Shown here one piece after another: positions 30,771-54,212 of a stretch of 64,000 bases of DNA (position 1 is the first letter of the stretch; each line of letters opens with the position of its first letter). The notes beneath the pieces were generated by a model, which saw only the letters and a list, made by a program, of their open reading frames with translations, had not been told where the DNA came from and searched no databases. Made by a program: the position numbers and the translations under genes. Source of the DNA: Planctomycetota bacterium (GTDB lineage Bacteria > Planctomycetota > Phycisphaerae > UBA1845 > UTPLA1); contig JAATGM010000055.1 in assembly GCA_015654675.1 (NCBI GenBank), positions 78,305-142,304 of the forward strand, read 5' to 3'.

Positions 30771-31424
30771 GGTTTGCGCGACTTCTGAATGACCGCGCGA
30801 GCGGCCGCGGAGAGGGTACGCGCGAAATGTGTGAGCGAGGTGTGATGTAACTCGCAAATCGAGAGACATGAGTGCGATTCCGCTGCGTTGGCGGAAACCG
30901 TTGCGCGTGCATGTGGCGCGCGGCAGGCACGGATGGATCAGTCACCCGAGTGGACTGAGTGTTGTTGGCGGGCGGCATGTGCGAGGTCTTCGGAATTACT
31001 CGCACGTGTTCCGCTACCGAATCGAAGCGACGGCACTCGACACTTTTGCGAGGTGACCATGGTGAAGCGGATCGGCTTGCCGATTCGTGAGCGGGTTCGA
31101 GCCCCGTATTACCCGAGGACCGGGGTACTGGTCCACTAGCTTGAAGCGCTAGAAACAGAACCGGGATGGATGAACGCGATGCCGGCGGAAGCAGCCGCCT
31201 TCGAGCGGCAACCGATTCGCGGCTTTGAGATTGTGTGGATGTGTCGGGTGATGCGTCGTGGATGTGCGCCGGCCGGTGACGGGGGGCACCGGTCCGGCGC
31301 GGCGGAAGGGGCGCACACCGGACGGCCGCATGATCCCGCATGCGAGCGGCGCTGAAGCGGCGAACCGTTCATCGTCCCGGCTGATTTGAATGTGACTGCA
31401 CCGTGAAGGGAGGTGCGTGCAGTT

Positions 31425-37234: not shown

Positions 37235-38704
37235 TCAGCTTCCTGTTGAGCGCCGGAGCGAAATCGTGCTAGGGGCGTGCTTCTCGTAGTAGGTTATGCC
37301 AGCTCTTCCCTGCTCTTCATTCCAATCGACTCGTTCCGGGATCGCGAAGCCAGCATCGGTTACATCCGTCAGCAGTTGCGACTTCCGATCGAATAGCTGA
37401 AGTTTCCCGCTCTGTTCAAACAAAGCGTATTGACCGGTTGGGGAGATGAAGTACTTCCCCACCGTGCCAAGTCGCTTTGAACCGAAATACAGGTCTCGGT
37501 AGTGAGCTACCGACTCAAAGCTGCTTGCACTCGGAGCAGTTCTCGCGACTAGCGAGTAATCGTGGCCTAACGCGCGAGATGCATTAGACCGGGTGAATCC
37601 GGGGCGATTCTCGGGTTGCCAGTCGTATTCCATGTCGTGGGCAGCGCTTTGGGCGGCTTCTTTGCCGTAGAGGCGCGAGACTACCTGTAGCGCGCCGTCT
37701 ATTCCGGCTGAGATTCCCGCCGTTGTGATTACGTGACCATTATCGACCCAGCGGGCGCCTTCTTTCACTTCTATCGCGCTCGAGGCGCGGCGGAGGGCGG
37801 GGATGGCGGAGAAGTGTGTGGTGGCCGCGAGGTCATCGAGCAGACCCTGGTCGGCTAGCGTGAATGCGCCGGTGCAGACGGTCATTACTATTTTCGTGTC
37901 GGCGAATTTTGTGCGGACCCAGTCCATGAACTTTTTGTCTTTGGTCAGGTTCTGCGTTGCGCCGCCGGGGATGACGAGGATGTCGATGCGCGGGCAGGTG
38001 TCGATGGTGAAGTCGGGGGCGACGGTGACGCCCTGGCCGGTGACGCAGGGGCCGGGCTGCGGTGCGACGGTGAAGACGTGGCAGGCGCGGCGGCCGTCCT
38101 TGCGGGCGTGGGCGAAGACTTCGGCGGGGCCGGCGAAGTCGAGCAGCTCGACGCCTTTGTGGACGACGACGGCGACCTGGGTGGCGTCGGCGTCGCGTTT
38201 GCGCTCGGCGTCGGTGACGCGCTGGAGGATGGCGGCGAAGCGCGGGTCGGAGCGGATGTTGGCGAGGTCGGCGTCGTTTTCGAAGTAGTAGCGCTCGGTC
38301 ATGCCGGCGTCGAAGGCGGCGTTGAGGCGGCGGAAGGCGTCGTCGTTCTGTTTTCGCATGGCGTGGATGCAGGCGATGTTGTAGAGGGCGGTCTGGCGGG
38401 TGTCGGGGAAGGTGGCGGCTTTTTCGTGGATGGGCATGGCTTCGTCGAGCCGGCCGGCGGCGTGGAGGGCGTGGCCGAAGCGCTGCCAGTATAGGCCCTT
38501 GGTAGGGTCGGTTTTGGTGAGGTATTCGAAGGCGGCGATGGCTTTGGGCCAGTCCTGGGCGCGGAAGAGTTGTTCGGCTTGTTCGGGGGTGACGGCTGCG
38601 GATGCGGCGGGGGTTGTTGGATTGGGGGCGGGCGGGGTTTCGGCGAAGGTGGCGGCGGAGCAGAGGGCGGCGATTGTCAGCGTCGCGAGAAATCGGGCTG
38701 GCAT
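37235..38704 (-). CDS. secreted TPR + DJ-1/PfpI (class I glutamine-amidotransferase-like) domain protein
   Basis: Signal peptide from the ATG at 38704, with GGAGA SD upstream. TPR helices in the N-half. DJ-1/PfpI core IDILVIPGG...VMTVCTGAFTLADQGLLDDLAATTH with a nucleophile-elbow Cys. Confidence 0.7.
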   Translation of the reverse strand: MPARFLATLTIAALCSAATFAETPPAPNPTTPAASAAVTPEQAEQLFRAQDWPKAIAAFEYLTKTDPTKGLYWQRFGHALHAAGRLDEAMPIHEKAATFPDTRQTALYNIACIHAMRKQNDDAFRRLNAAFDAGMTERYYFENDADLANIRSDPRFAAILQRVTDAERKRDADATQVAVVVHKGVELLDFAGPAEVFAHARKDGRRACHVFTVAPQPGPCVTGQGVTVAPDFTIDTCPRIDILVIPGGATQNLTKDKKFMDWVRTKFADTKIVMTVCTGAFTLADQGLLDDLAATTHFSAIPALRRASSAIEVKEGARWVDNGHVITTAGISAGIDGALQVVSRLYGKEAAQSAAHDMEYDWQPENRPGFTRSNASRALGHDYSLVARTAPSASSFESVAHYRDLYFGSKRLGTVGKYFISPTGQYALFEQSGKLQLFDRKSQLLTDVTDAGFAIPERVDWNEEQGRAGITYYEKHAPSTISLRRSTGS

Positions 38705-38819
38705 GACTGGTCTCCGATCGTGGGTTGCTGGGAGGCGCCCCGGGTGAGTCGGGGCTGGGCTTGCTCGCGGGAGCATTGTAGCGGCGGGCGGCTCGCGCTG
38801 GGATCGGCGAAGTCGCGGC

Positions 38820-39233
38820 TCAGTTCCTCAAAAGGGCCTTGAAGCCCATTTGCTCAAAGTGACGGTCGAATGTCAGAGCCTCGCTGATGCCGTTTTGCTG
38901 CATGACGAGGAAGGATGCGCAGTCGGTGAGACTCCAGGCTTTGTCGGAGCGCTCAGCGAACAGGTCGGCGGCATCCCAGAACTGATTGCTGGATTGCGCG
39001 ATGATCGTCACAGCGGGATCATCTAATAGTCCGTCCACGAAAACAGACGCCGTGTGCCGGAATTTTTGATCTCGCGAACCGGCATCATTCAGCAGTTCCG
39101 TGAGGACCATCTCGGTGGTGATGATGTCGCGAATGCCGGGTGACGCGTCGAGCTCGCATGCCTTTTCGTGGAGAGAATCACGTGGATTTAGCAGGGCGAT
39201 CCAGAATCCGGTGTCTGCGAAGACAGTGCTCAA
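38820..39233 (-). CDS. vapC: PIN-domain toxin (VapC)
   Basis: PIN acidic residues in FADTGFWIALL, TTEMVLTEL, LTDCASF and FDRHF. Confidence 0.7.
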   Translation of the reverse strand: MSTVFADTGFWIALLNPRDSLHEKACELDASPGIRDIITTEMVLTELLNDAGSRDQKFRHTASVFVDGLLDDPAVTIIAQSSNQFWDAADLFAERSDKAWSLTDCASFLVMQQNGISEALTFDRHFEQMGFKALLRN

Positions 39234-39533
39234 TCAGTCCTCGCGCGGATAGCCGTAGCGATAGTGCTCGAAGTTCTTCGCTAAGTCGGCCGGGAGTCTC
39301 GCCCAGTCGTCGCCGGTCATGTCGGCGCCGGCAGCCTCCGCGAGTTCGGCGAGTCGTCGGCGAGGTCCGGGCGAGAGCCGACCACCGTTTGAGCTATGGA
39401 CAGACAAGTACTCCTCGACCGCTTTCTTGAGGATTTCCGTGGCCGACTGGCCGGTCGACTCGGCGAGTTGCTCGACGGAGCGCCTCAACGAATCGTCGAG
39501 TTCAATGCGATTGTCGGGATACTTGGCGGCCAT
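39234..39533 (-). CDS. vapB: ribbon-helix-helix antitoxin (VapB-like)
   Basis: 99 aa. RIELDDSLRRSVEQLAESTGQSATEILKKAVEEYL is an RHH fold. The stop abuts the vapC start. Confidence 0.55.
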   Translation of the reverse strand: MAAKYPDNRIELDDSLRRSVEQLAESTGQSATEILKKAVEEYLSVHSSNGGRLSPGPRRRLAELAEAAGADMTGDDWARLPADLAKNFEHYRYGYPRED

Positions 39534-39596
39534 GTGGACAATTGTATCGCGATGCGGTTCTACGGGGCAACAATCAGCTTCATAGGAATACCACGG

Positions 39597-40796
39597 TCAG
39601 CCGACTTCGCGGGTTTCGAAGAGGGCTGCCGCGAGTGCGAGGGCGGCGGAGATGTAGAGGACGGCGTAGCAGGTTGTAGTGATGACGTATTTCCAGGGGA
39701 TGACGCGGTCGTCGGTCAGCGCGTCGATGAGCCACATGAATTGGAAATTGGGAATGGCGGCGTTGGCGATTTTCGCCCAGGTGACGCCCTCGGTTGCGAG
39801 CGGTTGCAGATAGTAGTCGGTGATCATGCCGGCGCAGAGGATGACAATGCAGATCAGGAGCGTGGGCACGGTGCTGAATCGGGTCGAGCAGGCGAGGGCG
39901 ATGGACGAGAGCACGAGGACGGCGAGCAGCACGAGGAAGGCCGCCTTGAGGATGTCGGGCGTGGCGATTTTTCGCGTTTCGGCGACGAGCCAGTCTATGG
40001 CCTGATTCCAGCGGAACTCGTCGGTGATGGAGCGAAGGGTGGCACGCTCTTCGTCGGTGATGGGGCCTTTGAAATTGCTGCGGACGAGTCTGCCGGGCGA
40101 GCCGGGCAGCGGCTTGAAGCCCTCATCCGGCACGAACTCGACGATGTGATTCAGCTTCTCGATCGCGATGAGTTCATCGGGGAGTTTGTCGATGTGCTGC
40201 ACCGTCTCGTAGCGGCTGAGCTTCCAATCGCGGTCGATGACGCTGAGGACGATGATCGAGACGGTGAGCGCGGGGGCAATCAGGCCGATGGCGGTGGGGA
40301 GGAATTTCCAGTCGAAGAGGTAGTTGAGGATCGCGGCGGCAATCAGCATCAACAGGCAGACGCCGGGTCCGAAGGCGATGACGGTCATGTCCGATGTTTC
40401 GGAGGCCATCTGGAGGACGCCGTGCCGGAGGGACATGACGTAGGCGATGGTTGAGAGGTAGAAGGCCAGAATGACAGCCGCGAAGACTCCCAGCGCTTTT
40501 CCGAGAATGAAGAGGCCGCGTGTCACGGGCTTTGAGACGGTGGTGAGGACGGTCTTTTGCTCGATTTCGAGGTTGACGACGGCTGAGGCGGAGAACGCGG
40601 CGAGGAACAAGCCCTGCATGAGGAGCGTAGATAGACCAAGGTCGCGCAGGAGCTTGTTGTCGTCGTCGAGCGTCCAGCCAGTCAGGGACGGGGCCAGGAC
40701 GAAGGAACCGAGGGTAGCCAGGACGAGAATGGCATAAATAGGCTGCCGGACGGTTTGCAGGAAGGTATTGGACGAGATGGCAAAAAGTTTATTCAT
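39597..40796 (-). CDS. ABC-2-type transporter permease (no adjacent ATPase)
   Basis: Six to eight TM helices with a central extracytoplasmic loop. This resembles the ABC-2 / GldF-NosY-type permease architecture. Confidence 0.5.
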   Translation of the reverse strand: MNKLFAISSNTFLQTVRQPIYAILVLATLGSFVLAPSLTGWTLDDDNKLLRDLGLSTLLMQGLFLAAFSASAVVNLEIEQKTVLTTVSKPVTRGLFILGKALGVFAAVILAFYLSTIAYVMSLRHGVLQMASETSDMTVIAFGPGVCLLMLIAAAILNYLFDWKFLPTAIGLIAPALTVSIIVLSVIDRDWKLSRYETVQHIDKLPDELIAIEKLNHIVEFVPDEGFKPLPGSPGRLVRSNFKGPITDEERATLRSITDEFRWNQAIDWLVAETRKIATPDILKAAFLVLLAVLVLSSIALACSTRFSTVPTLLICIVILCAGMITDYYLQPLATEGVTWAKIANAAIPNFQFMWLIDALTDDRVIPWKYVITTTCYAVLYISAALALAAALFETREVG

Positions 40797-41029
40797 CGGG
40801 AACCGCCGGTCGGGCTGGATGATCTAAGAGGAATAGACGCGACTGGTCAAGGATTGGTTCCTGCAAAGGTTTCACACGCGAGAAAGGCCCTGTTTTGCCG
40901 GACATTTGCACTGGTAGGTTCGGGCTAGCCCAACAATTAGGTGGGGCGTAGAATCGCCCGCTCGCCGTATCGTGGTCGGTGTGGGCCGCTTGGCGCGCCG
41001 CACTCCGTGATTCCAGGATGGATGATTAG

Positions 41030-43141
41030 ATGGTGACTTCGGATCGCAGGGGCGAGGGTGTCGCCGGCTTTGGGCTCGGAATCAGCGTTATTGGTTTCCT
41101 TGCGCTGGTTTTCCTGGGGGCGTCAAAGCTGAGTCTGGCGACCTATGCAGCCGGCTGGCAGATGCTGGGCTCGGCCGGCGTGTGGCTGTTGATTCTGGTG
41201 CGACTGCATCAGGGGCGGCTGCTCGAACAGGAAAAATTTGAGCTGGCCGAGCTGGAGCGGGAGCGGCGCGAGCGGCTGGGTGGCGCGGGGACGATCTTCA
41301 AGGAAGAGGACGCCGACCAGATGGAGGCCCTGTCGATGGGCCGCCGTCTGCGAACGATCGAGCGTTGGTTTGTTCCGATTTTCGCGATGGTCACGGCGGC
41401 GTTTCTGGCCGCCTTTGGGATGCGGTTTCTGGGGAAGGTCTGGCCGTGGGCATTGGCGATGGAGGCGGGGGACAAGCCCGTCATCGATGCGTCGATGCTG
41501 GCGTTTGTGGCCGGCGGGCTGGCGTTTGTGACGTTTGCGATGTCGCGCTACGCGCTGGGGATGGCGCGGGTGACTTCGGGCGGCGATTGGACGGCGTTGC
41601 GGGCGGGTGGAGTATTTTTCTTCGGCAACGCGGTGACCTGCCTGCTGCTGGCGATTGCGCTGGTGTTGGCGCACAACGGCTATGACTGGCCGGAGCGGTG
41701 GCTGGCAGTCGGCATCGGCATCGTGATGGTGGTGATGGCGGCCGAGATGGTCGTCAACTTTGTGCTGGAGTTCTACCGGCCGCGGGTGGCCGGCGAGCGG
41801 CAACGCGTGTTTTACGAGAGCCGATTGCTGGGGGTATTTTGCGAGCCGGAAGGGATTATCCGGAGCGTTGCACAGACGATCGATTATCAGTTCGGGTTCA
41901 AGGTCAGCGAGACCTGGTTTTATCAACTGCTGGGGCGGGCGATTATTCCGCTGGTGCTCTTTCAGGCGGTCGCGCTCTACTTCATGACGTGCTTCGTGGT
42001 GGTGCCGCAGGGGTATCAGGCGGTGGTCGAGAAGACGACGCTGGGCGCCCCCGAGCGGTGGGCGGCGATGCCGGGGATCGAATTCACCTGGCCGTGGCCG
42101 TTCGCGCGATCGACGCTTGTTCCGGTAGAGCGGATTCGACGGATGGAACTGGGCTACGACGCGGCCGCCGAGAAGAAGATGGCGGAGTTGACGGGCGCTT
42201 CGAAGATCAAGCAGCGGTCGAAGGAAGAGACGGTACTTTGGACGCAGAAGCACCGTGTACGCGAGTATCAGCTTCTGGTGGCCGATCGCAACGCGTCGGC
42301 CGAGGCCAAGGTTCCGGTGAACCTGCTGTCGGTCACAATGCCGGTGCAGTGGAAGGTGAAGAAAGACAAGGCGGTGGAATTCTATCGCCAGTCGGACGAC
42401 GTTGAAAAGTTGATCGAGTGTCTGGCCTACCGGGCTCTGACGAAGTATGCGGCCGGGGCGGACCTGTTGGAGTTGATTGGTCGCGGGGGCATTCAGGCGA
42501 CCGAGGAAGTGCGGAAGTCGCTCCAGGCGGCGTGCGATCGGGGCGGGATCGACGGGGGCGACCTGGGTGTCGAGATCATGTTTGTCGGCCTCGGGGGACT
42601 TCATCCGCCGACGGATGTGGCGGACGCCTACGAGACGGTGATGAACGCGGTCGAGCAGAAGGTCACGAAAATTCTGGAAGGGCAGCGGGATGCGCTGCTG
42701 ACGCAGATCAGCGCTGGTGGGGAACAATACGCGAAGCTCGCAACGGCGATCACGGCGGAGGAAAAGGCGCGCAACGACGGCTCGAAAGACATCGATGCGA
42801 AGTCGGCCGACGTGGAGAAGTTGCTGCGAACGGTAGCCGGTGGCACGGCCGGACAGATCGCCGCGGAAGGCGAGACGTATTTCTATCGCCGTGTGACGCT
42901 CGAGGGTGCTCGGGCGGCGTTGTTCAAGATTCAGAGCGAGGCGTGCGCGAAGGCGCCGGCCGTCTATTCGCGGCGGGCGTATCTGCGGACGATGGTGGAC
43001 GGGCTTCGCAACAAGCGGATTTATGTGGTGGCGGTGAAGCAGTTGGAGCGGATTCTTTACCAGTTGGATCTGAAGCCGCCGCCGCCGCTGGAAGTATTGC
43101 AATCGGAAGTGAAGAACTTCAACGAGTCGAGTGGACAGTAG
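41030..43141 (+). CDS. polytopic membrane protein with C-terminal SPFH/band-7 (HflK/C-like) domain
   Basis: About 8 TM helices in the first 300 aa. SPFH core from VVPQGYQAVVEKTTLGAPERWAAMPGIEFTWPWPF to GVEIMFVGLGGLHPPTDVADAYETVMNAVEQK, then a coiled coil. TAG stop. Confidence 0.6.
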   Translation: MVTSDRRGEGVAGFGLGISVIGFLALVFLGASKLSLATYAAGWQMLGSAGVWLLILVRLHQGRLLEQEKFELAELERERRERLGGAGTIFKEEDADQMEALSMGRRLRTIERWFVPIFAMVTAAFLAAFGMRFLGKVWPWALAMEAGDKPVIDASMLAFVAGGLAFVTFAMSRYALGMARVTSGGDWTALRAGGVFFFGNAVTCLLLAIALVLAHNGYDWPERWLAVGIGIVMVVMAAEMVVNFVLEFYRPRVAGERQRVFYESRLLGVFCEPEGIIRSVAQTIDYQFGFKVSETWFYQLLGRAIIPLVLFQAVALYFMTCFVVVPQGYQAVVEKTTLGAPERWAAMPGIEFTWPWPFARSTLVPVERIRRMELGYDAAAEKKMAELTGASKIKQRSKEETVLWTQKHRVREYQLLVADRNASAEAKVPVNLLSVTMPVQWKVKKDKAVEFYRQSDDVEKLIECLAYRALTKYAAGADLLELIGRGGIQATEEVRKSLQAACDRGGIDGGDLGVEIMFVGLGGLHPPTDVADAYETVMNAVEQKVTKILEGQRDALLTQISAGGEQYAKLATAITAEEKARNDGSKDIDAKSADVEKLLRTVAGGTAGQIAAEGETYFYRRVTLEGARAALFKIQSEACAKAPAVYSRRAYLRTMVDGLRNKRIYVVAVKQLERILYQLDLKPPPPLEVLQSEVKNFNESSGQ

Positions 43142-43153
43142 GAATCGGACTGT

Positions 43154-44083
43154 ATGAGCGGATTCTGGACGAAGTTTTCGGCGCTACTGGTGGTGATCGT
43201 CTTGCTGCTGGCGATGACGGCGCACCAGGTGCGATTCACCGAGACGGCAGTGGTGACGCGGTTTGACCGGGTGAAGCGCGTCATTCCGGCCAATGAGGCG
43301 GGTCTGATCTTCACGGCGCCATGGCCGATCGAGCGGGTGCAGAAGTTCGACGCGCGGCTGCGGACCTATCAGACCGAGTTCAACCAGTTGAGCACGGAGG
43401 ATCAGAAGACGATCACCGTGGCGGCGTTTGCAACCTGGCGGATCGCGGACGCGGAGCTGTTCCTGCGGGCGGTGGGACGCGAGGAGGCGGCCGACAACAA
43501 GATCGGCGACCTGCTGAAGAACGAGGTGAGCAACACGCTTCGGCGGCACAATCTGGCGAGTCTCGTGAATATCGACCCGAAGCTGATGAAGTTTGACCAG
43601 ATCGAGACTGAAGTGCTGGCGGCGGTTTCGGCGCAGTCGAAGCAGAGCTACGGCATTGCGGTGGCTTCGGTAGGGATCGAGCGGCTGGGATTGCCGGAGG
43701 CGAACACGAACGAGGTTTTCGCGCGCATGAAGGCGGATCGTAAGAAGGTCAGCGATGCGTACGTGGCCGAGGGTGACGCTCAGGCGAAGAAGATCCGCAG
43801 CGACGCGGAGCAGGTCGCGAGCCGGATCGTGACGCGGACGCAGGCGTACGCGAAGAAGCTTCTGGGAGAAGGCGACGCGCGGGCGGCACAGTACTACTCG
43901 GAGTTCGAGAAGAACCCGCGCTTGAGCGCGTTCATCAAGGACCTCGAGGCGTTGGGCGAGATCCTGCGATCGGGCAAGTCGACCATTATTTTCGATTGGA
44001 AGACGGAGCCGTTTACGCCGCTCGGTCCCATCGGCGATTCGACGCCGCCGCACGGCGAGCCGAAGCCCAGCAGCGAGAAGTGA
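43154..44083 (+). CDS. HflC-like SPFH/band-7 protein
   Basis: N-terminal TM anchor. VRFTETAVVTRFDRVKRVIP...GLIFTAPWPIERVQKFDARLRTY. The coiled coil contains ARMKADRKKVSDAYVAEGDAQAKKIRSDAE. Confidence 0.7.
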   Translation: MSGFWTKFSALLVVIVLLLAMTAHQVRFTETAVVTRFDRVKRVIPANEAGLIFTAPWPIERVQKFDARLRTYQTEFNQLSTEDQKTITVAAFATWRIADAELFLRAVGREEAADNKIGDLLKNEVSNTLRRHNLASLVNIDPKLMKFDQIETEVLAAVSAQSKQSYGIAVASVGIERLGLPEANTNEVFARMKADRKKVSDAYVAEGDAQAKKIRSDAEQVASRIVTRTQAYAKKLLGEGDARAAQYYSEFEKNPRLSAFIKDLEALGEILRSGKSTIIFDWKTEPFTPLGPIGDSTPPHGEPKPSSEK

Positions 44084-44087
44084 TGCG

Positions 44088-45227
44088 ATGACCGACCAAC
44101 CTGCCAGCAATGTCGCGCTGCCCGTGCTTCCGGGCGATTCGTTCGACCCGGCCAACCAGTCGCTGGCCGATGCACTGCGCAAGAGCTTCGCGGTGCTGAA
44201 AGGGTTGATGCTCATTCTGGTCGTGGCGTACGCGCTCTCCGGTTGGTTTCGCGTGCAGCCCGGCGAGGTGGGATTCGTTGTCCGGCTTGGGAGGGTTGTG
44301 AACGACGGGCAGTCGGGCATTTTGAAGCCGGGCTGGCACTGGGCGTTTCCGTATCCGATCGATCAGGTAATGACGGTGGCGACGCAGAAGGAGCGATCGC
44401 TGCCAATCCAGTTTCTGTTTCAAATGACGGATGAAGACAAGGTGCGCGGTCCGCGGCGGATTGTTTATAGCGCGCTGGGTCCGATGAATGATGATTACCT
44501 GCTTACCGGCGATCTGAGCATATTCCATGCGCAAATGCTGGTGCGATACCGGATCACGGATCCGGTGGCGTATATCGCCAACATCGTGGATATGACGCCG
44601 GGCGATGAGAATCCGGCCGAACATGAGATGCTGCGGAACCTGGTACGCGACTCCGCCATCAGCGTGGCCGCGCGAACCCCGCTTGGACAGATTTATGGCG
44701 CGAGCCAGTCGGCTTTCCTGGAGAACGTCGGCGAGGAATCGCGGGGAAATCTGAAAAAGCTGGAAGTCGCGGGGCAGGCCACGGGAATCGAAATCGTGGG
44801 CGTAATCGCACCGCAGGTCGCGGGCGTCGAGGCCATTCTGCCGCCGCGACAGACGCGCGAGGCGTTTGATGAAGTGGTCTCGTCGGAGCAGAAGAGAAGC
44901 ACCGCCATCAGCACGGCACAGGGCCGCGCATCGGAGTTATTGCGACAGACGGCCGGCGGGGGATATGAGGAGATTGCGACGGCGATCGAGGCGGAGTTTG
45001 ATTCGCTGCTGGCGTATCTGCGGGCGGAGCGGGCGACGGAGGATCGCGAATCGAAGATCGCAACGGCACTGGCGGAGTTGCAGAAGCGCGGCGAGGAGAG
45101 TGAGCGGCTGCTGCTGAATGCATCGGGCGACGTGCAGCAGGTCGTCAACGAAGCGCGGAGCGAACGCGATCGAATCATCAATGAGTCCATCGCCGACGCG
45201 AAGCAGGTCGAGCAACTGGCGGATTAG
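44088..45227 (+). CDS. HflK-like SPFH/band-7 protein (conserved C-terminal tail appears to continue in frame past TAG 45225-45227 to 45479)
   Basis: N-terminal TM anchor. GEVGFVVRLGRVVNDGQSGILKPGWHWAFPYPIDQV. Long coiled coil. See the finding on the in-frame stop. Confidence 0.65.
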   Translation: MTDQPASNVALPVLPGDSFDPANQSLADALRKSFAVLKGLMLILVVAYALSGWFRVQPGEVGFVVRLGRVVNDGQSGILKPGWHWAFPYPIDQVMTVATQKERSLPIQFLFQMTDEDKVRGPRRIVYSALGPMNDDYLLTGDLSIFHAQMLVRYRITDPVAYIANIVDMTPGDENPAEHEMLRNLVRDSAISVAARTPLGQIYGASQSAFLENVGEESRGNLKKLEVAGQATGIEIVGVIAPQVAGVEAILPPRQTREAFDEVVSSEQKRSTAISTAQGRASELLRQTAGGGYEEIATAIEAEFDSLLAYLRAERATEDRESKIATALAELQKRGEESERLLLNASGDVQQVVNEARSERDRIINESIADAKQVEQLAD

Positions 45228-45485
45228 TATCGCCGGAACGGTGAGTTCCTGACGTCGCGCCTGCGGACCGAATTCACGCAGCAGATTCTTTCGGGTCAGG
45301 GCGTTCGAAAGATGTGGGTTCCTCCGGGTGACGAAAAGATCTGGTTCCAGATACCAACTGAGTCGGAGGCATCGGCAGGAGACGCGAAGGGCGACAATAC
45401 GGCCACTTTCCTGAGGCCGGCGCCACAGACGGGGTACATTGACCGGGCGCCGATGCGGAACAGACCAACAAGGGATTAGACGCGG

Positions 45486-46709
45486 ATGAGCAAGGCCATC
45501 AAACCCGCGCCGGTGGTGGAGTGCGCGGCGCTGACAAAGGTGTTCGCGGACTTCTGGGGCCGGGGGAAGGTGCTGGCGGTCGACAATCTCAATCTGGAGA
45601 TCTATCCGGGTGAGGTGTTTGGGCTGCTGGGGCCGAACGGTTCGGGCAAGAGCACGACGATCAAGATGCTGCTGGGGTTGCTTTATCCCACGCGCGGGCG
45701 GGCGCGAGTCTTCGATCGGCCGACGACGGACACGTCGGTGAAGAAGCGGATCGGTTTCATGCCCGAGGAGTCGTATCTCTATCGATTCCTGAATGCTTCC
45801 GAGACGCTGGATTACTACGGCCGGCTGTTCAAGCTGGATCGGAGCGAGCGGCGGAGCCGGACCGAGCAATTGATCGACATGCTGGGACTCAAGCGAGCCG
45901 CGCATCGATCGGTGGGGCAGTACTCGAAGGGAATGGCGCGACGGATCGGGCTCGCGCAGGCGCTGATCAATGATCCGGACCTGCTGATTCTGGATGAGCC
46001 GACGACTGGGCTGGATCCGATCGGCTCGCGCCAGATCAAGGATGTCATCGTTGAGCTGGCAAAGCGCGGCAAGACGGTCATCCTGTCGAGCCATTTGCTG
46101 GCGGACGTGGAAGATGTCTGCGATCGCGTGGCGATCATGTATGGCGGCAAGCTGCAGGCGATGGGGCCCGTGAAGCAGCTCTTGCAGCGGCAGGACATCA
46201 CCGAGATCACTATTCCGAAGACGGAGGGCGCTTCGCTTGACCGGCTGCGGAGCACGATCGAGGGGCAGATCGGGCGGCCGGTGCTGGATGTGCGCCATCC
46301 GACGGACAAGCTCGAAGACCTGTTTCTCCGAATTGTGGAGCAGGCACAGCGCGACAAGCTGGAGACCAGCGGGGCCGAGTCGCGGCGGGGCGTGAGCGAC
46401 TTCCTGGCGGCTGCGCCGGGCACGGTGCGTCAGGCGCCCGAAGCGGTGCTGGAATCGCTTGTGGCGGCGGGGGCGGACGTCGGCATGGTCGAGCCCGAAG
46501 CGCCGACGGTAACAAAGAAGGCAGCGCCGAAGTTCGAAGTGCTGGAAGATCTTGCCACGCCGGCGGACGAACCCACGGTTGAGCCGGAACCGGTCGAAGA
46601 CGGGCCGCGGGCGATCAAGTCGAAGCCGGTGCAGCCGAATCGATCGGTGCTCGATCGATTGACGAAATCCGATGACTCCGATTCGAGTTCGGGAGCGGGG
46701 AAGGGCTGA
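45486..46709 (+). CDS. ABC transporter ATP-binding protein with ~160-aa low-complexity acidic C-terminal extension
   Basis: Walker A GPNGSGKST, Q-loop, signature YSKGMARRIGLAQAL, Walker B LLILDEPTTGLD, H-loop SSHLL. Confidence 0.85.
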   Translation: MSKAIKPAPVVECAALTKVFADFWGRGKVLAVDNLNLEIYPGEVFGLLGPNGSGKSTTIKMLLGLLYPTRGRARVFDRPTTDTSVKKRIGFMPEESYLYRFLNASETLDYYGRLFKLDRSERRSRTEQLIDMLGLKRAAHRSVGQYSKGMARRIGLAQALINDPDLLILDEPTTGLDPIGSRQIKDVIVELAKRGKTVILSSHLLADVEDVCDRVAIMYGGKLQAMGPVKQLLQRQDITEITIPKTEGASLDRLRSTIEGQIGRPVLDVRHPTDKLEDLFLRIVEQAQRDKLETSGAESRRGVSDFLAAAPGTVRQAPEAVLESLVAAGADVGMVEPEAPTVTKKAAPKFEVLEDLATPADEPTVEPEPVEDGPRAIKSKPVQPNRSVLDRLTKSDDSDSSSGAGKG

Positions 46710-46721
46710 GCCGCTTCTGCA

Positions 46722-48455
46722 ATGGACGTCATCTACGACTCATTTATGGTGGCCGTATGCGTGCTGCTGCTGATCACGGCGGCGGCGATTCTGCGGTCGG
46801 CGTTCGGTCGCGGCGGGGGCGAAGTCGGCGGGTGGGAGGCATCGGGGGCGTGGCGACGGCTGCGGGCTGTCGCGCGGGTGACGATTGCCGAAGGACTTCG
46901 TATGAAGCTGGCGATCGTGTTCATCGGATTGCTGGTAATAACCCTGCCGGCCCTGTGCTTCGCTGCGAAGGGGGATGGGACTATCAAGGGCCGGGTGCAG
47001 ATGTTTCTCGGCTACTCCATCGGGTTGACGGGCTTCTACCTTTCACTGCTCACGATTTTCTTTTCGTGCCGAACGCTCGCGAACGAGATTGCGACGCAGC
47101 AGATCGTGATCCTCGCGACAAAACCCGTTCCACGCTGGCAGATTTTGGTCGGAAAATGGCTGGGGATCATGGTCTTGAACGTCATGCTGGTGGCATTCGC
47201 CATGGTCTTCACGTATGCGGGGACGCGCTGGATTGTCGGCCGGTTCGAGCGATCGCTGCGCGACGAACTGGCGAACCGAGGCGGACTGACCGTCGAGCAG
47301 GCGGACGATTGCGTCGCGGCGATCACCGATGTCCGGGGGCCGGGCGGACAGGGCGCGTTTAGCCCGATCATTCCAGCCATGGCGGCGGCGCTGGGGCGGT
47401 CAGAAGAACAGATTGCCGACCTTCTGCTCAAGCTGCCCGAGCCGGTACGGATGGATTTGCGTCGGCTGGATGAACTGCGACGTCAGGTACTGACTGCGCG
47501 GGCCGCCGTAAAGCCGGAAGAGCCCGACCTGAGGAAGGCGATCGACGAATACTACAAAAAGCTTGAACAAGAGAAGCGGCTGCCCAACGGGCCGGAATGG
47601 CCGATGGATCGGATTCGCGACACGATTCGGGCGGTAGTGAGCGGCCAGTTCACGACCGTTCCGTACATGGGCTATCGCGAATGGAAAATGAAGGGGCCGG
47701 TTCCGAAGGCGGACGACAAGTTTCTCTTCAGCGTTCGTTACAAGATTCGGATCGGCGGATATGCCGGGGACCTGGTATTGCCGAACGGCTTGAAGTTTCC
47801 GGAGAACACTTTTTTCCCGCAGTGGATCATCGGCGACCGGAAGAGCCCGACGCACTTCATTCCCAGGACCGTTCCGGAGGCGATGAACGCGTTTCACGAG
47901 CTCGAAATACCAAACAACGTTGTCGAGCCGGATGGGACCATTCGCGTGACGCTGGTGAACCAGGATCCGCGGCGGGTCGATGCGATCGTGCCGCTGGAGG
48001 ACGGGTTGGAAGTGTTGTACCGGGTCGGCTCGTTCGAGGAGAACCTGGTTACGGCGGGGTTGGCGATGTTGCCTTCGCTGGGATTGCTGGCGGCGCTGGG
48101 GCTGCTGCTGACGACATTCTGCACGTTTCCGGTGGCGGTGCTGGTGAGTCTAGTGTTGTTCGGGGTTTGTGAAACGCGCGGGCTGATGGCCGAGGCGCTG
48201 GCCATGACGCCGGCGCAAGCGCCGGCCCACATGACTGCGCGCGACAAGTTTCGGCGAATTGCGACGCAGGGGATGTTCGAGGCGGTTTCGCTTGGAGAAT
48301 TGGACCCGCCCGAGATGACGCTGCAGGGGCGGAATATCGGCTGGCCGGCACTCGCCGAAGAGACGCTCAATGTAATGGTTTTGCGCGGCGGCGTGCTGTT
48401 GTTTGTCGGCGTGCTGGTTTTTCGGCGGCGCGAGCTGGCCGCCGTGATTGTGTAG
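46722..48455 (+). CDS. ABC-2-type permease with large (~280 aa) extramembrane insertion
   Basis: Four N-terminal TM helices, a long soluble insertion, and two C-terminal TM helices. It is tightly linked to the ATPase. The stop overlaps the next gene by 8 nt. Confidence 0.5.
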   Translation: MDVIYDSFMVAVCVLLLITAAAILRSAFGRGGGEVGGWEASGAWRRLRAVARVTIAEGLRMKLAIVFIGLLVITLPALCFAAKGDGTIKGRVQMFLGYSIGLTGFYLSLLTIFFSCRTLANEIATQQIVILATKPVPRWQILVGKWLGIMVLNVMLVAFAMVFTYAGTRWIVGRFERSLRDELANRGGLTVEQADDCVAAITDVRGPGGQGAFSPIIPAMAAALGRSEEQIADLLLKLPEPVRMDLRRLDELRRQVLTARAAVKPEEPDLRKAIDEYYKKLEQEKRLPNGPEWPMDRIRDTIRAVVSGQFTTVPYMGYREWKMKGPVPKADDKFLFSVRYKIRIGGYAGDLVLPNGLKFPENTFFPQWIIGDRKSPTHFIPRTVPEAMNAFHELEIPNNVVEPDGTIRVTLVNQDPRRVDAIVPLEDGLEVLYRVGSFEENLVTAGLAMLPSLGLLAALGLLLTTFCTFPVAVLVSLVLFGVCETRGLMAEALAMTPAQAPAHMTARDKFRRIATQGMFEAVSLGELDPPEMTLQGRNIGWPALAEETLNVMVLRGGVLLFVGVLVFRRRELAAVIV

Positions 48456-50169
48456 GCGACTGATGAGGCCGACGACGCGACGGTGGATATATGCGGCAGC
48501 GGCGGCGGTGCTGCTGGCAGGGGCATCTTCAATTGTGCCATCCATTCAGTCGCAGCGATTGGCGGGCGGTCTGGTGGTGACCAATCCGCTGGCGACGTCA
48601 CAGCCGAATGGCGAGGGCATGTCGGCGTCGGCTCAGCCCGGGATGCTGCTCGGGCCGCTGCTGGCGATTGGTCGCGCGCCGATCGTCGATTTTCTGTGGA
48701 TGCGTGCATCGAAGCTCAAGGAAGAAGGGCGATACTTCGACGCATATCAGTTGGCCGAGCTGATCGGGCGACTGCAACCGCGTTTCGCAGCCGTGTGGGG
48801 GTTCAACGCCTGGAACATGGCGTACAACATTTCGGTGTCGCTGCGGCCGCCGGAAGAGCGCTGGCGCTGGGTCTGGAACGGGATCGTGCTGCTTCGCGAT
48901 CAGGGGATTCCGCAGAATCCGCGTAATGCGGTGATGTACAAGGAACTGGCGTGGATTTTCTTCCACAAGGTGGGCGACTACATGGACGACGCCCACTACT
49001 ACTACAAGCTGCAGCTCGCGCTGCTCATGCAGGATATTCTGGGGGCGGGGGGGAACGCGGACTATGCGGGCATGGCGGCTGCGCCGACGAAGTGGGCGAC
49101 GCTGGCGTCCGACCCCGCGGTGGCGGCGGTGGTCAAGTCGTTTGAGCAGGAACTGAAAGCGGACATTTCGAAACCGGGGGTGTACCTGGGATTGTTGGCG
49201 CAGACGGATCCGTCGCGTGAACTGACGGCGATGCTTTCGAATGAAGCGACGGCCACACCACGAAAGCAGATCGAGAATTTCTGGCGCGCGAAGCGGCTGC
49301 GCGAAGAAATGAAGCTCGATCCGGTGCGAATCGTGGAACTGCGAAAGGTGTTCGGACCGCTCGATTTTCGAACACCCGAGGCGAATGCGATCTACTGGGC
49401 CAGCCTGGGAACGCAGGTCAGCCAGGGAAACCGGCTGGCGGTCGATATCGATATTCTCAACACGGACCGGATCTACCTCTATTGCCTTCAGTCGTTATTT
49501 CGTCGCGGAAAGATGATCATGTCGCCGCGGGCGAGGGACGGCGAGCCGCCGATGATGCTGCCGGATGTGCGATTCGCACCGGTCATGCGCGAGGCGTTCA
49601 AGACGGCCTCGAAAAAGTTTCCGAAGCAGCCGGGACAGGGACCGGTGCATACGAACTTCGAGTCGGCCTACGTGAACTTCATGCGCGAGGCGATCCTGAG
49701 ATACAACGAATCGGGGCAGGTGGCGAAGTCGCGCGAGTGGTTCGACGAGCTGAAAAGGGAATATCCGTCGCACGATTACGACGGTGGTTATGAAAAGTAC
49801 CTGAGCTCGCAGTGGCTCAAAGTACAGGACTTTACGCAATTGCGCGATGTTGAGAATCGCCTGCTCAGCGTGCTGGAGACGGCCGTCCAGCTTATGGCGT
49901 ACGGTGAGGATCAGGACGCCGCGACCTATGTTGCGTTCGCCAAGCGCATGCATGCAAAATACGAGAAAGAACAGAACAACGAGCGGTATCGAATGAAGCC
50001 GTTCAAGACGATGTACGAATATGTCGTGCACGGGATGGGGCAATACATGACGGAGGCGCAATACGAGCGCGTCCTGAAGATCACCGGATTCAAGCGGCCT
50101 CCGGCCACGCAGCCGGCGAAGAAGAACTCGGAAAAATCGACTTCGCCGAAGGCCGGGGCTACGAAGTAG
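48448..50169 (+). CDS. hypothetical signal-anchored protein, last gene of the SPFH-ABC operon
   Basis: 573 aa with a hydrophobic N-terminus (WIYAAAAAVLLAGASS). Mixed alpha-helical, Trp/Tyr-rich body. No family recognised. Confidence 0.5.
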   Translation: MCRRLMRPTTRRWIYAAAAAVLLAGASSIVPSIQSQRLAGGLVVTNPLATSQPNGEGMSASAQPGMLLGPLLAIGRAPIVDFLWMRASKLKEEGRYFDAYQLAELIGRLQPRFAAVWGFNAWNMAYNISVSLRPPEERWRWVWNGIVLLRDQGIPQNPRNAVMYKELAWIFFHKVGDYMDDAHYYYKLQLALLMQDILGAGGNADYAGMAAAPTKWATLASDPAVAAVVKSFEQELKADISKPGVYLGLLAQTDPSRELTAMLSNEATATPRKQIENFWRAKRLREEMKLDPVRIVELRKVFGPLDFRTPEANAIYWASLGTQVSQGNRLAVDIDILNTDRIYLYCLQSLFRRGKMIMSPRARDGEPPMMLPDVRFAPVMREAFKTASKKFPKQPGQGPVHTNFESAYVNFMREAILRYNESGQVAKSREWFDELKREYPSHDYDGGYEKYLSSQWLKVQDFTQLRDVENRLLSVLETAVQLMAYGEDQDAATYVAFAKRMHAKYEKEQNNERYRMKPFKTMYEYVVHGMGQYMTEAQYERVLKITGFKRPPATQPAKKNSEKSTSPKAGATK

Positions 50170-50195
50170 AAATTGGGGATTAGCGCGGGGGCGGG

Positions 50196-52310
50196 TCAGC
50201 GGGCGGCGGAGTTTTTCCGCATGATTTCGAGGTAGGCGCGGAACTCAGCGTTGCCGGGTTCGAGCTCCACCGCTTTCTGCATGTGTCGGACGGCCTCGGG
50301 CCAATGACTATCGGCGGCGAGCAGGGCAGCCTGCAGCGCCCAGGCGCGCGGATTTTGCGGAGCGGCCGCGAGAGCCTTGGCGACAAGCGGTCGGGCCCTG
50401 GCGGGCTGCGCGGCGGTCATGTATTGGTTGGCGAGGCGGAGCAGCAGATCGGGGTCGGTGGAGAGTACTGTAAGGGCGAGTTCGTAGTCGGCGATCGCGC
50501 CGCGGAGATCGCCGGCGGCTTCGAGGCACTGGCCGTGATACTTGCGGGCAATGGCGTCGGCGGGATATGCGCGGAGGGCGTCGGCGAGGATCGGTTCGGC
50601 GATTCCCGGAAATCCGAGGGCGAGTGCGAAGGCGCCGAGCTGCTGATAGGGAACGGACGAAGCGATCGAAGTAAGGAAGCCGGCGGCGTTCCATTCGATC
50701 GGCGGGCCGAGCGATCTTCGCACGGGATCGGTGAGGGCGATGAGATCGGATGAGGTTAGTGCTGAGGCAGGGGAACCGGGGGTGTCGGCGCGGATAAAGA
50801 CGCCGGCGACGTCATCGATGTAAGCGAGCCGCCAGTTCGGATCGGCGGCGAGCGTGTTAATGAGCCGCGAGTTGAGCCCGACGACGGCGGTTCGGAATCC
50901 ATAGCTTTTTGCGGCTTGCTTCCAACCGGATTCGGTTTCGACGATGCGGCGGTATTCGTCGAATCGGTCTTCACCGTAGACCTCGAGTCGTCCGTCGTAG
51001 AAGACCGGGTGGTCGCAGTAGAGGAGGTAACTGCTTTCGACCATGGTACTGAAGATGGGGTCGGGCCAGTGTTGCTCGCGCAGGCGGCGCTCGGCTTCGA
51101 TCGGGGCGCGATGCTGGGCGAGCCCAAGGCCGAACTGATTGGTGTCGAGGTGGCGCACGTAGAAGCGATTGGTGGCGAACTCGCGGACGAAATAGAGGCA
51201 AAAAACGATTGCAGCGACGGCGATTGGAATCTGCAGCCAACGGACGAGATGTGCGGCTGCGGGCCGATGAAGCAGCGCAGATCTGCGAAAGTTCTGGATG
51301 GCGACGGGCGCGGCGGCGAGGCAGAAGAAGGGGATATTTCGGACGGACTGGATTGAGAGATACAACTGCGAAATCACGAGAAGAGTCCAGAAGGCGTCGA
51401 GCTTGCGGATGTTGCCGAGCAGTGAGAGGACGAAGAGGACGATCAGGGCGCGGAAGTAGAAGATGGGAATAGCAGCGGCGTCGTAATCGAAGGCGCCTTT
51501 CAGCTCTACGATCTGCTCCTTGAATGATGAGCCATGTGTCATTCGCAGGACCTGCGCGGCGTGTTCGAAGCTTCGCCAGCCATAGGGATTGACGAGGCAT
51601 GCGAGCAGCGTGAGGGCGAGCACGATTGCAGCGCGGCGCAGGGCGTGCATCAGATGGCGTTGGACATCCGCGGGGGCGTTTTGTCGCCGGCTAAGTAGAG
51701 TGCGGACGAGCAGGACTACTAACCAGAGACCAGCGATAGCCGGTCCGAGGGCGAAGACAGTGTGGAGGTTGACCCAGGCGATTTGGAGCAGTGGGATCGC
51801 GTAGAGCCAGGGGCGCGACGATTTTTCCTGCCGGTGCAGGACAAAGAGAAACGCCGCGAAGAAGAAGTAGCTGAAGAGCTCTGGACGGAGGAAGTATCGT
51901 TGGGCTGCGGCGAGGATGGCGACTGGGAGAACGATGAATGCAGCTAGAGTCGGTTGTCGGAGGGCGGGTGCCGCGGCGAGTGCCCAAGTGAGGGCAATGA
52001 TTATGGCGGATGCGAGGGAGAGACCGCCGAATCCAATCGACGAATGGATGGCGTGGAGGAAGAGGCAGTAGAGCCAACGAAGTTCGATCCAGCGAGCCCC
52101 GGCTACGGTGTATGAGAAGACGTCCACCGTTGGTATGCCGTGGGCCGCGATGTATTCGCCGGTTTTGAGCTGCCACCAGAAGTCGGCGGGCCAAATTCGC
52201 CGGATGGCCGCGCAGGCGAGGAGGGCGAGGACGGCGCCAAGGACGATGTAGTAAAGATGTCTGGAGACGGTGTTTTCAGACGAGGGGAGTTGAGGGTCGG
52301 ATGTGGTCAT
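50196..52310 (-). CDS. polytopic membrane protein with C-terminal TPR repeats (GT-C-like architecture)
   Basis: More than 10 TM helices followed by TPR helices (ALTVLSTDPDLLLRLANQYM...). The start is chosen at MTTSDP (52310); the track ORF extends to 52505. Confidence 0.55.
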   Translation of the reverse strand: MTTSDPQLPSSENTVSRHLYYIVLGAVLALLACAAIRRIWPADFWWQLKTGEYIAAHGIPTVDVFSYTVAGARWIELRWLYCLFLHAIHSSIGFGGLSLASAIIIALTWALAAAPALRQPTLAAFIVLPVAILAAAQRYFLRPELFSYFFFAAFLFVLHRQEKSSRPWLYAIPLLQIAWVNLHTVFALGPAIAGLWLVVLLVRTLLSRRQNAPADVQRHLMHALRRAAIVLALTLLACLVNPYGWRSFEHAAQVLRMTHGSSFKEQIVELKGAFDYDAAAIPIFYFRALIVLFVLSLLGNIRKLDAFWTLLVISQLYLSIQSVRNIPFFCLAAAPVAIQNFRRSALLHRPAAAHLVRWLQIPIAVAAIVFCLYFVREFATNRFYVRHLDTNQFGLGLAQHRAPIEAERRLREQHWPDPIFSTMVESSYLLYCDHPVFYDGRLEVYGEDRFDEYRRIVETESGWKQAAKSYGFRTAVVGLNSRLINTLAADPNWRLAYIDDVAGVFIRADTPGSPASALTSSDLIALTDPVRRSLGPPIEWNAAGFLTSIASSVPYQQLGAFALALGFPGIAEPILADALRAYPADAIARKYHGQCLEAAGDLRGAIADYELALTVLSTDPDLLLRLANQYMTAAQPARARPLVAKALAAAPQNPRAWALQAALLAADSHWPEAVRHMQKAVELEPGNAEFRAYLEIMRKNSAAR

Positions 52311-52343
52311 GCTTGGGCAGCATCGAGTATAGGGCAGGCGAGG

Positions 52344-54212
52344 ATGACGACGCCAGAGACGAAAGCGACGAGCGACGACGGCGGGGAGAAGTCCCGATTC
52401 GGATGGATCTACCCGCTGGTTGTGGGGCTTGTGGCGTTCGCGACATTTCATCGGAGTCTGTTCAACGAACTGGTGAATATCGACGACTATGAGAACCTCA
52501 TCCAAAACACGCAGTTCCGAGGATTAGGATGGGAACAGCTTCGTTGGATGTTCACGTCATTTCACCTGGGGCCATATCAGCCATTGAGCTGGATGACGCT
52601 TGGAGCGGATTGGGTGGTCTGGGGTGGTCGGCCCGTAGGTTATCACCTGACAAACTTGCTGCTGCACAGCGCGGCGGCGGTGATGTTTTATTTTCTGTCG
52701 CTTCGTTTGCTGCGATTAGCGCGCCCTGAGACAGACGGCGTCGCCGTGCGAGTCGGGGCGGCAGCGGCGGCGCTACTGTTCGCGATCCATCCGCTGCGGG
52801 TGGAGTCGGTGGTATGGGCGACGGAGCGGCGGGATGTTCTATCGGGGCTGTTCTACTTCGCGACGGTGATCGCGTATTTGCGCTACGTGGAGGCGACGGG
52901 TTCGGCGCGCGTACGGTGCTACGCGCTGACGATCGGGCTTTTCGCCATGTGCCTGCTTTCGAAGGCCATGGGAATGACTCTGCCGTTGGCGCTTCTGATT
53001 CTTGACGTATATCCATTACGGCGCGTACGCGAGGCCGGGGTATCGAGAGTACTTATTGAGAAGCTGCCGATGCTGGCGCTGGCGGCCGGGGTGGCGATTG
53101 CAGCGATCATCGGGCAGCGGCAGGTTGGGGCCTTCCAATCATTGGAGCGGATTGGATTTGTGGATCGCGTCCAAATCGCGGCCTATGCGAGTTGCTTCTA
53201 CGTGGTCAAGACATTGGCGCCGTTCGGGTTGGCGCCAATGTATGAGATTCCGCGTCCGCTCAATCAGTTGCAGCCGTATCTGGTAGCGTCGGTCGGCGTG
53301 GTGCTCGTCACTTGCCTGCTGGCGGTTTTGCTTCGTCGACGCTGGCCGGGGTTTCTCGCGGCTTGGGCGTTTTTCTTAATCACGCTTGCGCCGGTTTCGG
53401 GGCTGGCGCATGCGGGGCGACAGATAGCGGCGGATCGATACACCTATCTTCCGATGGCGGGATTTGCGGTGCTTGCGGGCGGCGGAATTGCGTTTGGGTT
53501 TAGCAGATCGGGTCGGCCGCGGCGGCGCTTGCCGCTGGGGATAGGCGTCTGTGCGGCTGTATTGGGGTTGGCGTTCTTGAGCGTTCGGCAGAGTTTGATT
53601 TGGCATGATTCAATCCGCCTTTGGAACCGAGTGCTCGAGATCGATCCGCAGAGTGGGACGGCGCACATGAACATCGCAGTGCAGCTGCATATGGGGGGCG
53701 CGAATGAATCGGCATTGCCGCATGCGATGCGGGCGGCAATGCTGCGGCCGGATAGTTCGGATTGCCAGTTCGTTTGCGGACGCGTCTTGCGCGGGCTTGG
53801 CCGGGACGATGAAGCGTTCGAGCATTTTCGTGTTGCGGCATTGGCGGAGAATTCGAGTCCGGAGGCGCAGGCCGAGTACGGAATTGCGTTGGCACGTCGC
53901 GGAGACCTCGACGCGGCGGCACCGTTTCTTGAGCGAGCAACGACAGCGATGCCGGAGCACGCGCAGGCACAAATGACGCTGGGGCTGATTCAGGCGGGCC
54001 GCGGGAACGGCTTGGCGATGCGGAAGTGCTTCGAGCAGGCCAGCATTGGTGACGGGCTGACGGTCGAGTCAGTTCGGGCGATGATGATTGCAACGACGCG
54101 AGTTCTGGGGCGTCCAGCCGCGGCAGAGATCGTCAGGCGAGCACTCGAAACGGCATCGAAGACGAGCGACAAAGCACTCGAAACTGGATGCCGAGAGCTG
54201 TTGGCCGAATGA
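52344..54212 (+). CDS. TMTC-like (PMT_2/DUF1736-type) GT-C-family glycosyltransferase-like membrane protein with C-terminal TPR repeats
   Basis: GYHLTNLLLH motif, a polytopic N-domain, and a C-terminal TPR array. The start is chosen at ATG 52344 (MTTPETK). Confidence 0.65.
   Translation: MTTPETKATSDDGGEKSRFGWIYPLVVGLVAFATFHRSLFNELVNIDDYENLIQNTQFRGLGWEQLRWMFTSFHLGPYQPLSWMTLGADWVVWGGRPVGYHLTNLLLHSAAAVMFYFLSLRLLRLARPETDGVAVRVGAAAAALLFAIHPLRVESVVWATERRDVLSGLFYFATVIAYLRYVEATGSARVRCYALTIGLFAMCLLSKAMGMTLPLALLILDVYPLRRVREAGVSRVLIEKLPMLALAAGVAIAAIIGQRQVGAFQSLERIGFVDRVQIAAYASCFYVVKTLAPFGLAPMYEIPRPLNQLQPYLVASVGVVLVTCLLAVLLRRRWPGFLAAWAFFLITLAPVSGLAHAGRQIAADRYTYLPMAGFAVLAGGGIAFGFSRSGRPRRRLPLGIGVCAAVLGLAFLSVRQSLIWHDSIRLWNRVLEIDPQSGTAHMNIAVQLHMGGANESALPHAMRAAMLRPDSSDCQFVCGRVLRGLGRDDEAFEHFRVAALAENSSPEAQAEYGIALARRGDLDAAAPFLERATTAMPEHAQAQMTLGLIQAGRGNGLAMRKCFEQASIGDGLTVESVRAMMIATTRVLGRPAAAEIVRRALETASKTSDKALETGCRELLAE

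Follow-up and report, generated by a model that had tools for sequence, protein, structure and literature searches.

Results

A conserved SPFH-ABC cluster. A 64,000-nucleotide (nt) stretch of contig JAATGM010000055.1 from a planctomycete (the window) carries a seven-gene membrane module, in which three genes for SPFH (band-7) proteins, g1 to g3, are followed by genes for an ATP-binding cassette (ABC) ATPase (g4), an ABC-2 permease (g5) and a protein without a Pfam family (g6), while a second permease gene, g0, is divergent from g1 (Table 1). The open reading frames (ORFs) listed in an earlier note on this DNA were checked at their coordinates, and domains were assigned with Pfam and with NCBIfam at its equivalog cut-offs. 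All six plus-strand ORFs were confirmed with the domains that had been proposed for them. The gaps from g1 to g6 were 12, 4, 258, 12 and -8 nt as called. The permease gene g0, which had been regarded as an orphan, proved to be a regular member of the cluster.

Conservation was assessed in two independent samples. For the first, an alignment of 16 diverse g1 homologues was scanned against one genome per species; at least 592 stretches encoding a g1 relative were obtained from at least 600 that matched, and 80 loci were retained and examined. The presence of the other genes was scored by tblastn with the window proteins and counted only where the locus was long enough (Table 1). The order g0(-) g1 g2 g3 g4 g5 g6 was kept in essentially every assessable locus, down to 31% g1 identity. 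Two of the four loci in which tblastn missed g3 were checked, and in both the slot was filled by a 438-amino-acid (aa) ORF. The second sample consisted of 80 metagenome loci anchored on g6. Here g5 was present in 57 of 58 assessable loci, g4 in 46 of 47, g3 in 34 of 35, g2 in all 32 and g1 in 29 of 30. Among the matches listed, the named sources of g1 relatives were Planctomycetota, mostly metagenome-assembled genomes of Phycisphaerae, Sedimentisphaerales and Phycisphaerales; two contigs with a g1 relative carry an Acidobacteria label.

The ORFs of these loci were all clustered to provide a control: none of the flanking families occurred in more than 38 of the 86 sequences (85 loci and the window region), and those that recurred did so only in one subclade. 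The junctions between g3 and g4, where the SPFH genes meet the ABC genes, measured 3, -4, 3, 11, 154 and 29 nt in six loci with called genes. The genes g0 to g6 are inherited together as a single, tightly spaced unit, and the neighbourhood conservation which the earlier note had named as the test of such a unit was found in both samples. This synteny is good evidence that the SPFH and ABC genes are functionally coupled, and g0 to g6 very probably form one functional module. The genome has a GC content of 62% and is rich in long antisense ORFs. Full-length homologues were found in the hundreds for each of the genes tested (g1, g5 and g6), and together with the synteny of all seven genes this indicates that g1 to g6 are real genes and not spurious long ORFs.

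Table 1. Positions of the cluster features in the window and presence of the genes in the g1-anchored loci
Feature	Position	Strand	Description	Assessable loci with the gene
g0	39597..40796	-	Second ABC-2 (NosY-like) permease, 399 aa, divergent from g1	67/67 (divergent, adjacent to g1)
Divergent intergenic region	40797..41029	.	233 nt; conserved TAGAAT box at 40949-40954	
g1	41030..43141	+	703 aa; N-terminal domain with seven transmembrane helices, HflK-like SPFH domain, coiled-coil region	
g2	43154..44083	+	309 aa; HflC-like SPFH protein, single N-terminal transmembrane helix	75/75
g3	44088..45479	+	HflK-like SPFH protein; in-frame TAG at 45225-45227; 379 aa as called (44088-45227), 463 aa restored	63/67 (tblastn)
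g4	45486..46709	+	407 aa; ABC ATPase (DrrA/NosF/GldA class), acidic Pro-rich tail	56/56
g5	46722..48455	+	ABC-2 permease of NosY fold; insertion of ~270 residues (about 173-440) between core transmembrane helices	51/51
g6	48463..50169	+	N-terminally anchored TPR-like alpha-solenoid; ORF opens with TTG at 48448, likely start ATG at 48463	47/50

The three SPFH proteins. The Band_7 domain (PF01145) was found above the cut-off of 23.6 bits in g1 (51.6 bits, residues 324-554), g2 (78.4 bits) and g3 (75.5 bits). With the hflC model TIGR01932, g2 reached 125.5 bits, slightly under the equivalog cut-off of 134.4 bits, while the hflK equivalog TIGR01933 (cut-off 159.4 bits) was reached neither by g3 (68.7 bits) nor by g1 (54.2 bits). 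In comparisons with the PDB, the g1 family profile matched HflK with an E value of 2.4e-19, the best match of g2 was E. coli HflC (3.4e-24), and g3, restored as described below, matched HflK (3.8e-8). With these Band_7 scores, and with HflK and HflC as the closest solved relatives, the description of g1 to g3 as HflK/C-like SPFH paralogues was upheld. Pairwise identity among the three did not exceed about 20% over any long alignment, so they appear to be an old heteromeric set and not recent duplicates.

Hydropathy analysis gave one N-terminal transmembrane (TM) helix each for g2 and g3. For g1 it gave seven peaks, and not the approximately eight helices counted before, with the N-terminus inside and charged loops at residues 59-110 and 249-296 on the cytoplasmic side. 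On this hydropathy prediction the SPFH domains of all three proteins would lie in the periplasm, as in HflK/C. The loop at residues 249-300 of g1 (YRPR...DYQFGFKVSETWFY) was invariant in the 16 diverse homologues, which are 33-63% identical, and it is a strong candidate for a cytoplasmic interaction surface. When the N-terminal domain of g1 was used as the sole query, 843 cluster representatives were matched; nearly all of them were 630-870 aa long and were hit at their N-termini, and those with a named source came from Planctomycetota without exception. The 7-TM domain is thus lineage-specific and appears always to be fused to SPFH.

The gap of 258 nt between g3 and g4 had been said to vanish if an in-frame TAG in g3 is read through. 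This is true, and the gap is the tail of g3: past the TAG, 83 further sense codons lead to a stop at 45477-45479, 6 nt before the start of g4. In the orthologues of L087, L089 and L001 (loci are cited by such numbers) the TAG position is Glu, and the 83 downstream codons are conserved (YRRNGxFLxxRLRTEF...). The g3 orthologue of the closest relative, L087, whose g1 is 89% identical, is uninterrupted, has 460 aa and ends 3 nt before the ABC ATPase gene; in the loci with called genes, g3 orthologues are 440-483 aa long. A single GAG-to-TAG change is the most economical explanation; it either arose very recently as a nonsense mutation or is an assembly (consensus) error. Programmed readthrough was rejected, as the orthologues have a plain Glu codon.

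The ABC transporter genes. The g4 protein matched ABC_tran with 111.5 bits and the DrrA subfamily with 223.7 bits. It belongs to the DrrA/GldA/NodI class with every equivalog model under its cut-off, and its identity across related loci is 46-67%. The g5 protein matched ABC2_membrane_2 with 33.4 bits and was nearest to NosY both by fold and by profile (family profile, E 4.2e-4), at a sequence identity of only 14%. Its insertion consists of a stalk and a beta-sandwich and is probably periplasmic, as deduced from ABC-2 topology. The earlier description of g4 as an ABC ATPase with an acidic tail and of g5 as an ABC-2 permease with a large soluble insertion agrees with these results.

For g0 the match to ABC2_membrane_2 was weak (E 2e-4), and the orthologue in L027 scored 37.3 bits, above the Pfam threshold. 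A comparison of g0 with the g5 family by hhalign gave an E value of 5.5e-5 over the region of the EIxxxT..SKPxxR motif. By this profile similarity g0 is a paralogue of the g5 membrane core, and the presence of two distinct permease genes with only one for an ATPase suggests that the membrane domain is a heterodimer.

An ABC_tran nucleotide-binding protein and a permease with the six-helix ABC-2 fold place the transporter in type V (ABC-2). The GldA and GldF equivalogs were not reached (191.7 against 402.6 bits and 21.4 against 288.5 bits), and an LptB equivalog combined with an LptF/G fold as best match was not found. A PADLOC scan of the seven proteins returned only generic ABC-ATPase matches for g4, none for the other six, and no defence system. 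By Pfam, NosD, NosL and NosZ were absent from the cluster genes, the only related feature being a weak NosD/DUF1565 neighbour in L001.

The solenoid protein g6. As the earlier note had said, g6 has no recognisable family, and Pfam gave no match. The family consensus starts with MRPxTRKW, and since this matches the sequence from ATG 48463, that codon is most likely the start of g6; the 8-nt overlap with g5 that had been proposed then becomes a gap of +7 nt. In the structural model (pLDDT 85.7), g6 is an almost entirely alpha-helical solenoid that follows an anchor whose N-terminus is predicted by hydropathy to lie inside, which places the solenoid on the periplasmic side. Invariant residues number 59, of which 35 fall within positions 76-200, with many Trp, Arg, Asp, Asn and Tyr. 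This conservation points to a specific binding or catalytic surface and not to a bland scaffold. In a long variant of about 770 aa (L090:18072-20375, P0106, P0110 and similar), a segment that is duplicated or inserted separates the conserved N- and C-terminal parts. The ORFs after g5 in L007, L011 and L053 were tested as divergent forms of g6 and rejected.

Promoter and RNA signals. The TAGAAT box of the divergent intergenic region precedes the g1 ATG by 76 nt. It was aligned in the intergenic regions of the window, L087 and L089, and TAGAAT is also present in that of L001; the 15-mer around the box is unique in the window. The box is a candidate -10 promoter element of the operon. A sigma-70 promoter scan gave background levels only, and no inverted repeats were found in the divergent intergenic region. 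The g1 leader folded no better than shuffled sequence (z = +1.06). An Rfam scan of positions 38500-51000 at E values up to 1 gave no match and no metal riboswitch. Terminator-like sites numbered 19, against a shuffle mean of 9.7; all were weak and none lay between genes of the cluster.

A P1B ATPase in related loci. The gene list of the earlier note was sound for its six genes but missed an eighth gene that most relatives carry. It encodes a P1B heavy-metal ATPase of 644 aa (L027:14331-16265; TIGR01525, 548 bits). Of 86 loci, 60 have the ATPase gene within the cluster or at its side; in the metagenome sample of 80 loci, 41 carry it between g3 and g4. The position between g3 and g4 is that of the Sedimentisphaerales-like clade; in L008-L016, L003 and L090 the gene is found just downstream of g0. 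Among the other loci, the ATPase is 59-97% identical. The protein has a His-rich N-terminus without an N-terminal HMA domain, an SCPC motif, and HFASS in TM8, where P1B ATPases of the Cu type have MxxSS and those of the Zn type DxG. This HMA-less ATPase may represent an undescribed P1B subgroup. No copy was found in the window, and several close relatives likewise do without it. In the window the slot is taken by a PIN-domain gene (38820-39233) and a DJ-1/PfpI gene with TPR (37235-38776), which together span 37235-39233 on the minus strand; this slot downstream of g0 is variable, and in relatives it holds the P1B ATPase or an AI-2E transporter.

Genes outside the cluster. A fourth SPFH gene (31413-32576), which had been grouped with the cluster, does not belong to it: in none of the related loci did a counterpart occur within 10 kb of the cluster. 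In its product no TM helix is predicted, about 146 residues precede Band_7, and the identity to g1-g3 is less than 28% and limited to short stretches; the gene has no nfeD neighbour. Downstream of g6, two large multi-TM and TPR proteins are encoded at 50196-52505 (minus strand) and 52140-54212. Only the closest relatives (L087, L089) retain the former, which therefore reflects lineage-level synteny outside the core. Beyond g0, about 20-38 loci of the Sedimentisphaerales-like clade similar to L021:2695-8824 carry genes for a GNAT protein, ACP, a FabA-like dehydratase, a ketoacyl synthase and SerRS, and an LpxA-like acyltransferase is encoded close by in nearer relatives. The region beyond g0 could be a lipid-related neighbourhood or plain synteny. 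The GC skew of the plus strand was strongly positive in every 2-kb bin of the window (positions 1-64000; 0.10-0.29) irrespective of gene orientation, which is unusually high for a segment of a bacterial chromosome.

Discussion

Relation to known systems. Membership in the SPFH superfamily and in the type V ABC transporters is of a known kind; what is new here is an SPFH scaffold with candidate clients encoded alongside. In a literature search no account of an SPFH-ABC-2 cluster was found, be it in Planctomycetota or in other organisms, in agreement with the earlier view that the pairing is uncharacterised, and a 2009 survey of prokaryotic SPFH operons makes no mention of transporters.

The closest relative of the SPFH part is the E. 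coli HflK/HflC-FtsH complex (7vhp, 7wi3, 9cz1). In both cases SPFH paralogues are encoded side by side, g1 and g3 being nearest HflK and g2 nearest HflC, and SPFH, coiled-coil and C-terminal strand regions occur in all three planctomycetal proteins, with the same predicted orientation. The cluster differs in having three paralogues instead of two, one of them fused to a 7-TM domain, in its scores below the equivalog cut-offs, and in its hard linkage to an ABC transporter, whereas the E. coli genes are linked to hfq-hflX. SPFH-NfeD operons differ in their adjacent nfeD; Pfam detected NfeD neither in g0-g6 nor among the called genes of eight related loci.

For the transporter the nearest system is NosDFY (7o0y). 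The g5 membrane domain best matches NosY by structure and by profile, g4 is of the NosF/DrrA class, and the action is in both cases probably on the periplasmic side. Unlike NosY, to which its identity is so low, g5 has a stalk and beta-sandwich domain of its own and is accompanied by a second permease paralogue, g0.

The stomatin dome, which encloses AQP1 and UT-B (PMC12407830), and the flotillin, prohibitin, erlin and QmcA cages show that SPFH oligomers are able to surround particular transport proteins within a patch of membrane. These are eukaryotic or homo-oligomeric and face the cytoplasm, and their clients are not co-encoded, unlike the cluster described here. In Mycobacterium tuberculosis, the PacL1-CtpC platforms provide a case of an operon-encoded membrane scaffold that stabilises a P1B ATPase in membrane foci (PMC9374683); PacL, however, is a small DUF1490 protein and not an SPFH protein, and the platforms are flotillin-independent and have no ABC transporter (PMC9374683). 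The PaFlo5-6-7 genes of Pseudomonas aeruginosa are three SPFH genes in one predicted operon with a narrow, patchy distribution (PMC13086221). The text of that paper makes no mention of an ABC transporter.

Proposed mechanism. In the model that we favour, g1, g2 and g3 would be inserted with their N-termini inside and their SPFH domains facing the periplasm, and would together build a hetero-oligomeric ring or dome like that of HflK/C on the cytoplasmic membrane. Two copies of g4 with g5 and g0 would constitute a type V ABC machine, whose periplasmic domain may hand a substrate on or perform mechanical work, on the model of NosDFY or LptB2FG, instead of plain pumping. The g6 protein would serve as a periplasmic adaptor. 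The SPFH assembly would corral or enclose the transporter, plus the P-type ATPase where present, and may in this way govern how the transporter is assembled, how stable it is or which lipids surround it. On the genomic evidence and the structural predictions, a physical assembly of SPFH proteins and transporter is about an even proposition.

Several points weigh against this model. The conserved synteny speaks for coupling and not for caging, which we infer, and the topology is supported by hydropathy alone. Proteins of the HflK/C type classically act on an FtsH encoded elsewhere, so that the enclosed client could be FtsH. No conserved Cys, His or Met cluster that would indicate a metal substrate was seen in the parts of g5 and g6 predicted to be periplasmic. 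The P1B ATPase is missing from the window and varies in position among relatives. Finally, g6 is missing in 3 of the 50 assessable g1-anchored loci, and its homologues stand alone, without SPFH or ABC neighbours, in L005, L006 and L094; the g6 solenoid family is not strictly tied to the cluster.

Alternative explanations. It is possible, if rather doubtful, that g1-g3 are the Phycisphaerae equivalents of HflK and HflC and modulate FtsH in trans, with the ABC transporter, g6 and the P1B ATPase as co-regulated clients or substrates of this quality-control system; the cage would then not be made for them. The solved relatives of g1-g3 and the near miss of g2 at the hflC cut-off (125.5 against 134.4 bits) are what this explanation would predict. 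The FtsH signature GPPGTGKT...HExGH, searched for with a crude regular expression, was found neither in the window nor within 10 kb of the cluster in 89 other loci. In E. coli hflKC and ftsH are unlinked, so a missing adjacent ftsH is uninformative. The earlier statement that neither FtsH nor NfeD is present as a partner holds for the surroundings of the cluster, but for FtsH it says little about a partnership. The scores of g1 and g3 far below the HflK cut-off (54 and 69 against 159 bits) are difficult to reconcile with plain equivalents of HflK, as is the fact that there are three paralogues, of which one bears a 7-TM domain that HflK/C are not known to have. The class-wide, nearly invariant linkage to the ABC genes is likewise unlike canonical hflKC operons (PMC13086221).

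An elaborated form of the enclosure model would be a three-component periplasmic SPFH dome, with its rim reinforced by the 7-TM domains of g1, that encloses two primary-active transporters, namely the NosFY-like ABC machine and, in most lineages, the P1B ATPase, along with g6 as adaptor. In this specific form we consider the model unlikely.

The cluster might also be a metal-trafficking unit, in which a NosFY-like ABC mechanotransducer and the P1B ATPase would deliver or remove a transition metal at the periplasmic face while the SPFH proteins stabilise the platform. Such a function would be compatible with enclosure of the transporter by the SPFH proteins. The proximity of g5 to NosY by profile and fold, the P1B ATPase with its CPC motif in or beside the cluster in 60 of 86 loci, a HypA gene next to g0 in L091, and the precedent of an operon-encoded scaffold for a P1B ATPase (PMC9374683) fit this explanation. 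The ATPase is, however, missing from the window and several close relatives, the cluster is without NosD, NosL and NosZ, no Cys/His/Met ligand pattern is seen among the residues that are invariant in the g5 insertion and in g6, and the Rfam scan gave no metal riboswitch. Metal trafficking is regarded as quite improbable.

That the SPFH genes and the ABC genes with g6 are two independent operons, adjacent merely through inherited gene order, would agree with the gap of 154 nt between g3 and g4 in L090 and with the whole ATPase gene that can intervene at this point, but it is highly improbable, as the flanking genes all turn over but order and orientation within the cluster persist at g1 identities as low as 31%, and as 3-nt gaps or 4-nt overlaps occur at the g3-g4 junction in several loci.

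Significance. Taken as a whole, the near-complete retention of the cluster in hundreds of Phycisphaerae genomes argues for a single uncharacterised membrane machine. Three uncharacterised families restricted to Planctomycetota were defined, namely the 7-TM-SPFH fusion (g1), the NosY-like permease with a beta-sandwich domain (g5) and the g6 solenoid, and the atypical HMA-less P1B ATPase is now linked to these families. Cryo-electron microscopy has solved the SPFH cages of HflK/C, prohibitin, flotillin, stomatin, erlin and QmcA. The effect of such cages on the proteins that they enclose is debated, partly since clients are rarely genetically defined. If the elaborated form of the enclosure model were true, this would be the first SPFH cage with clients encoded alongside, and the planctomycetal periplasm would contain a closed chamber for export or hand-off. 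For the SPFH field the cluster offers a defined client set, in which the candidate clients are co-encoded with the scaffold and conserved across a bacterial class.

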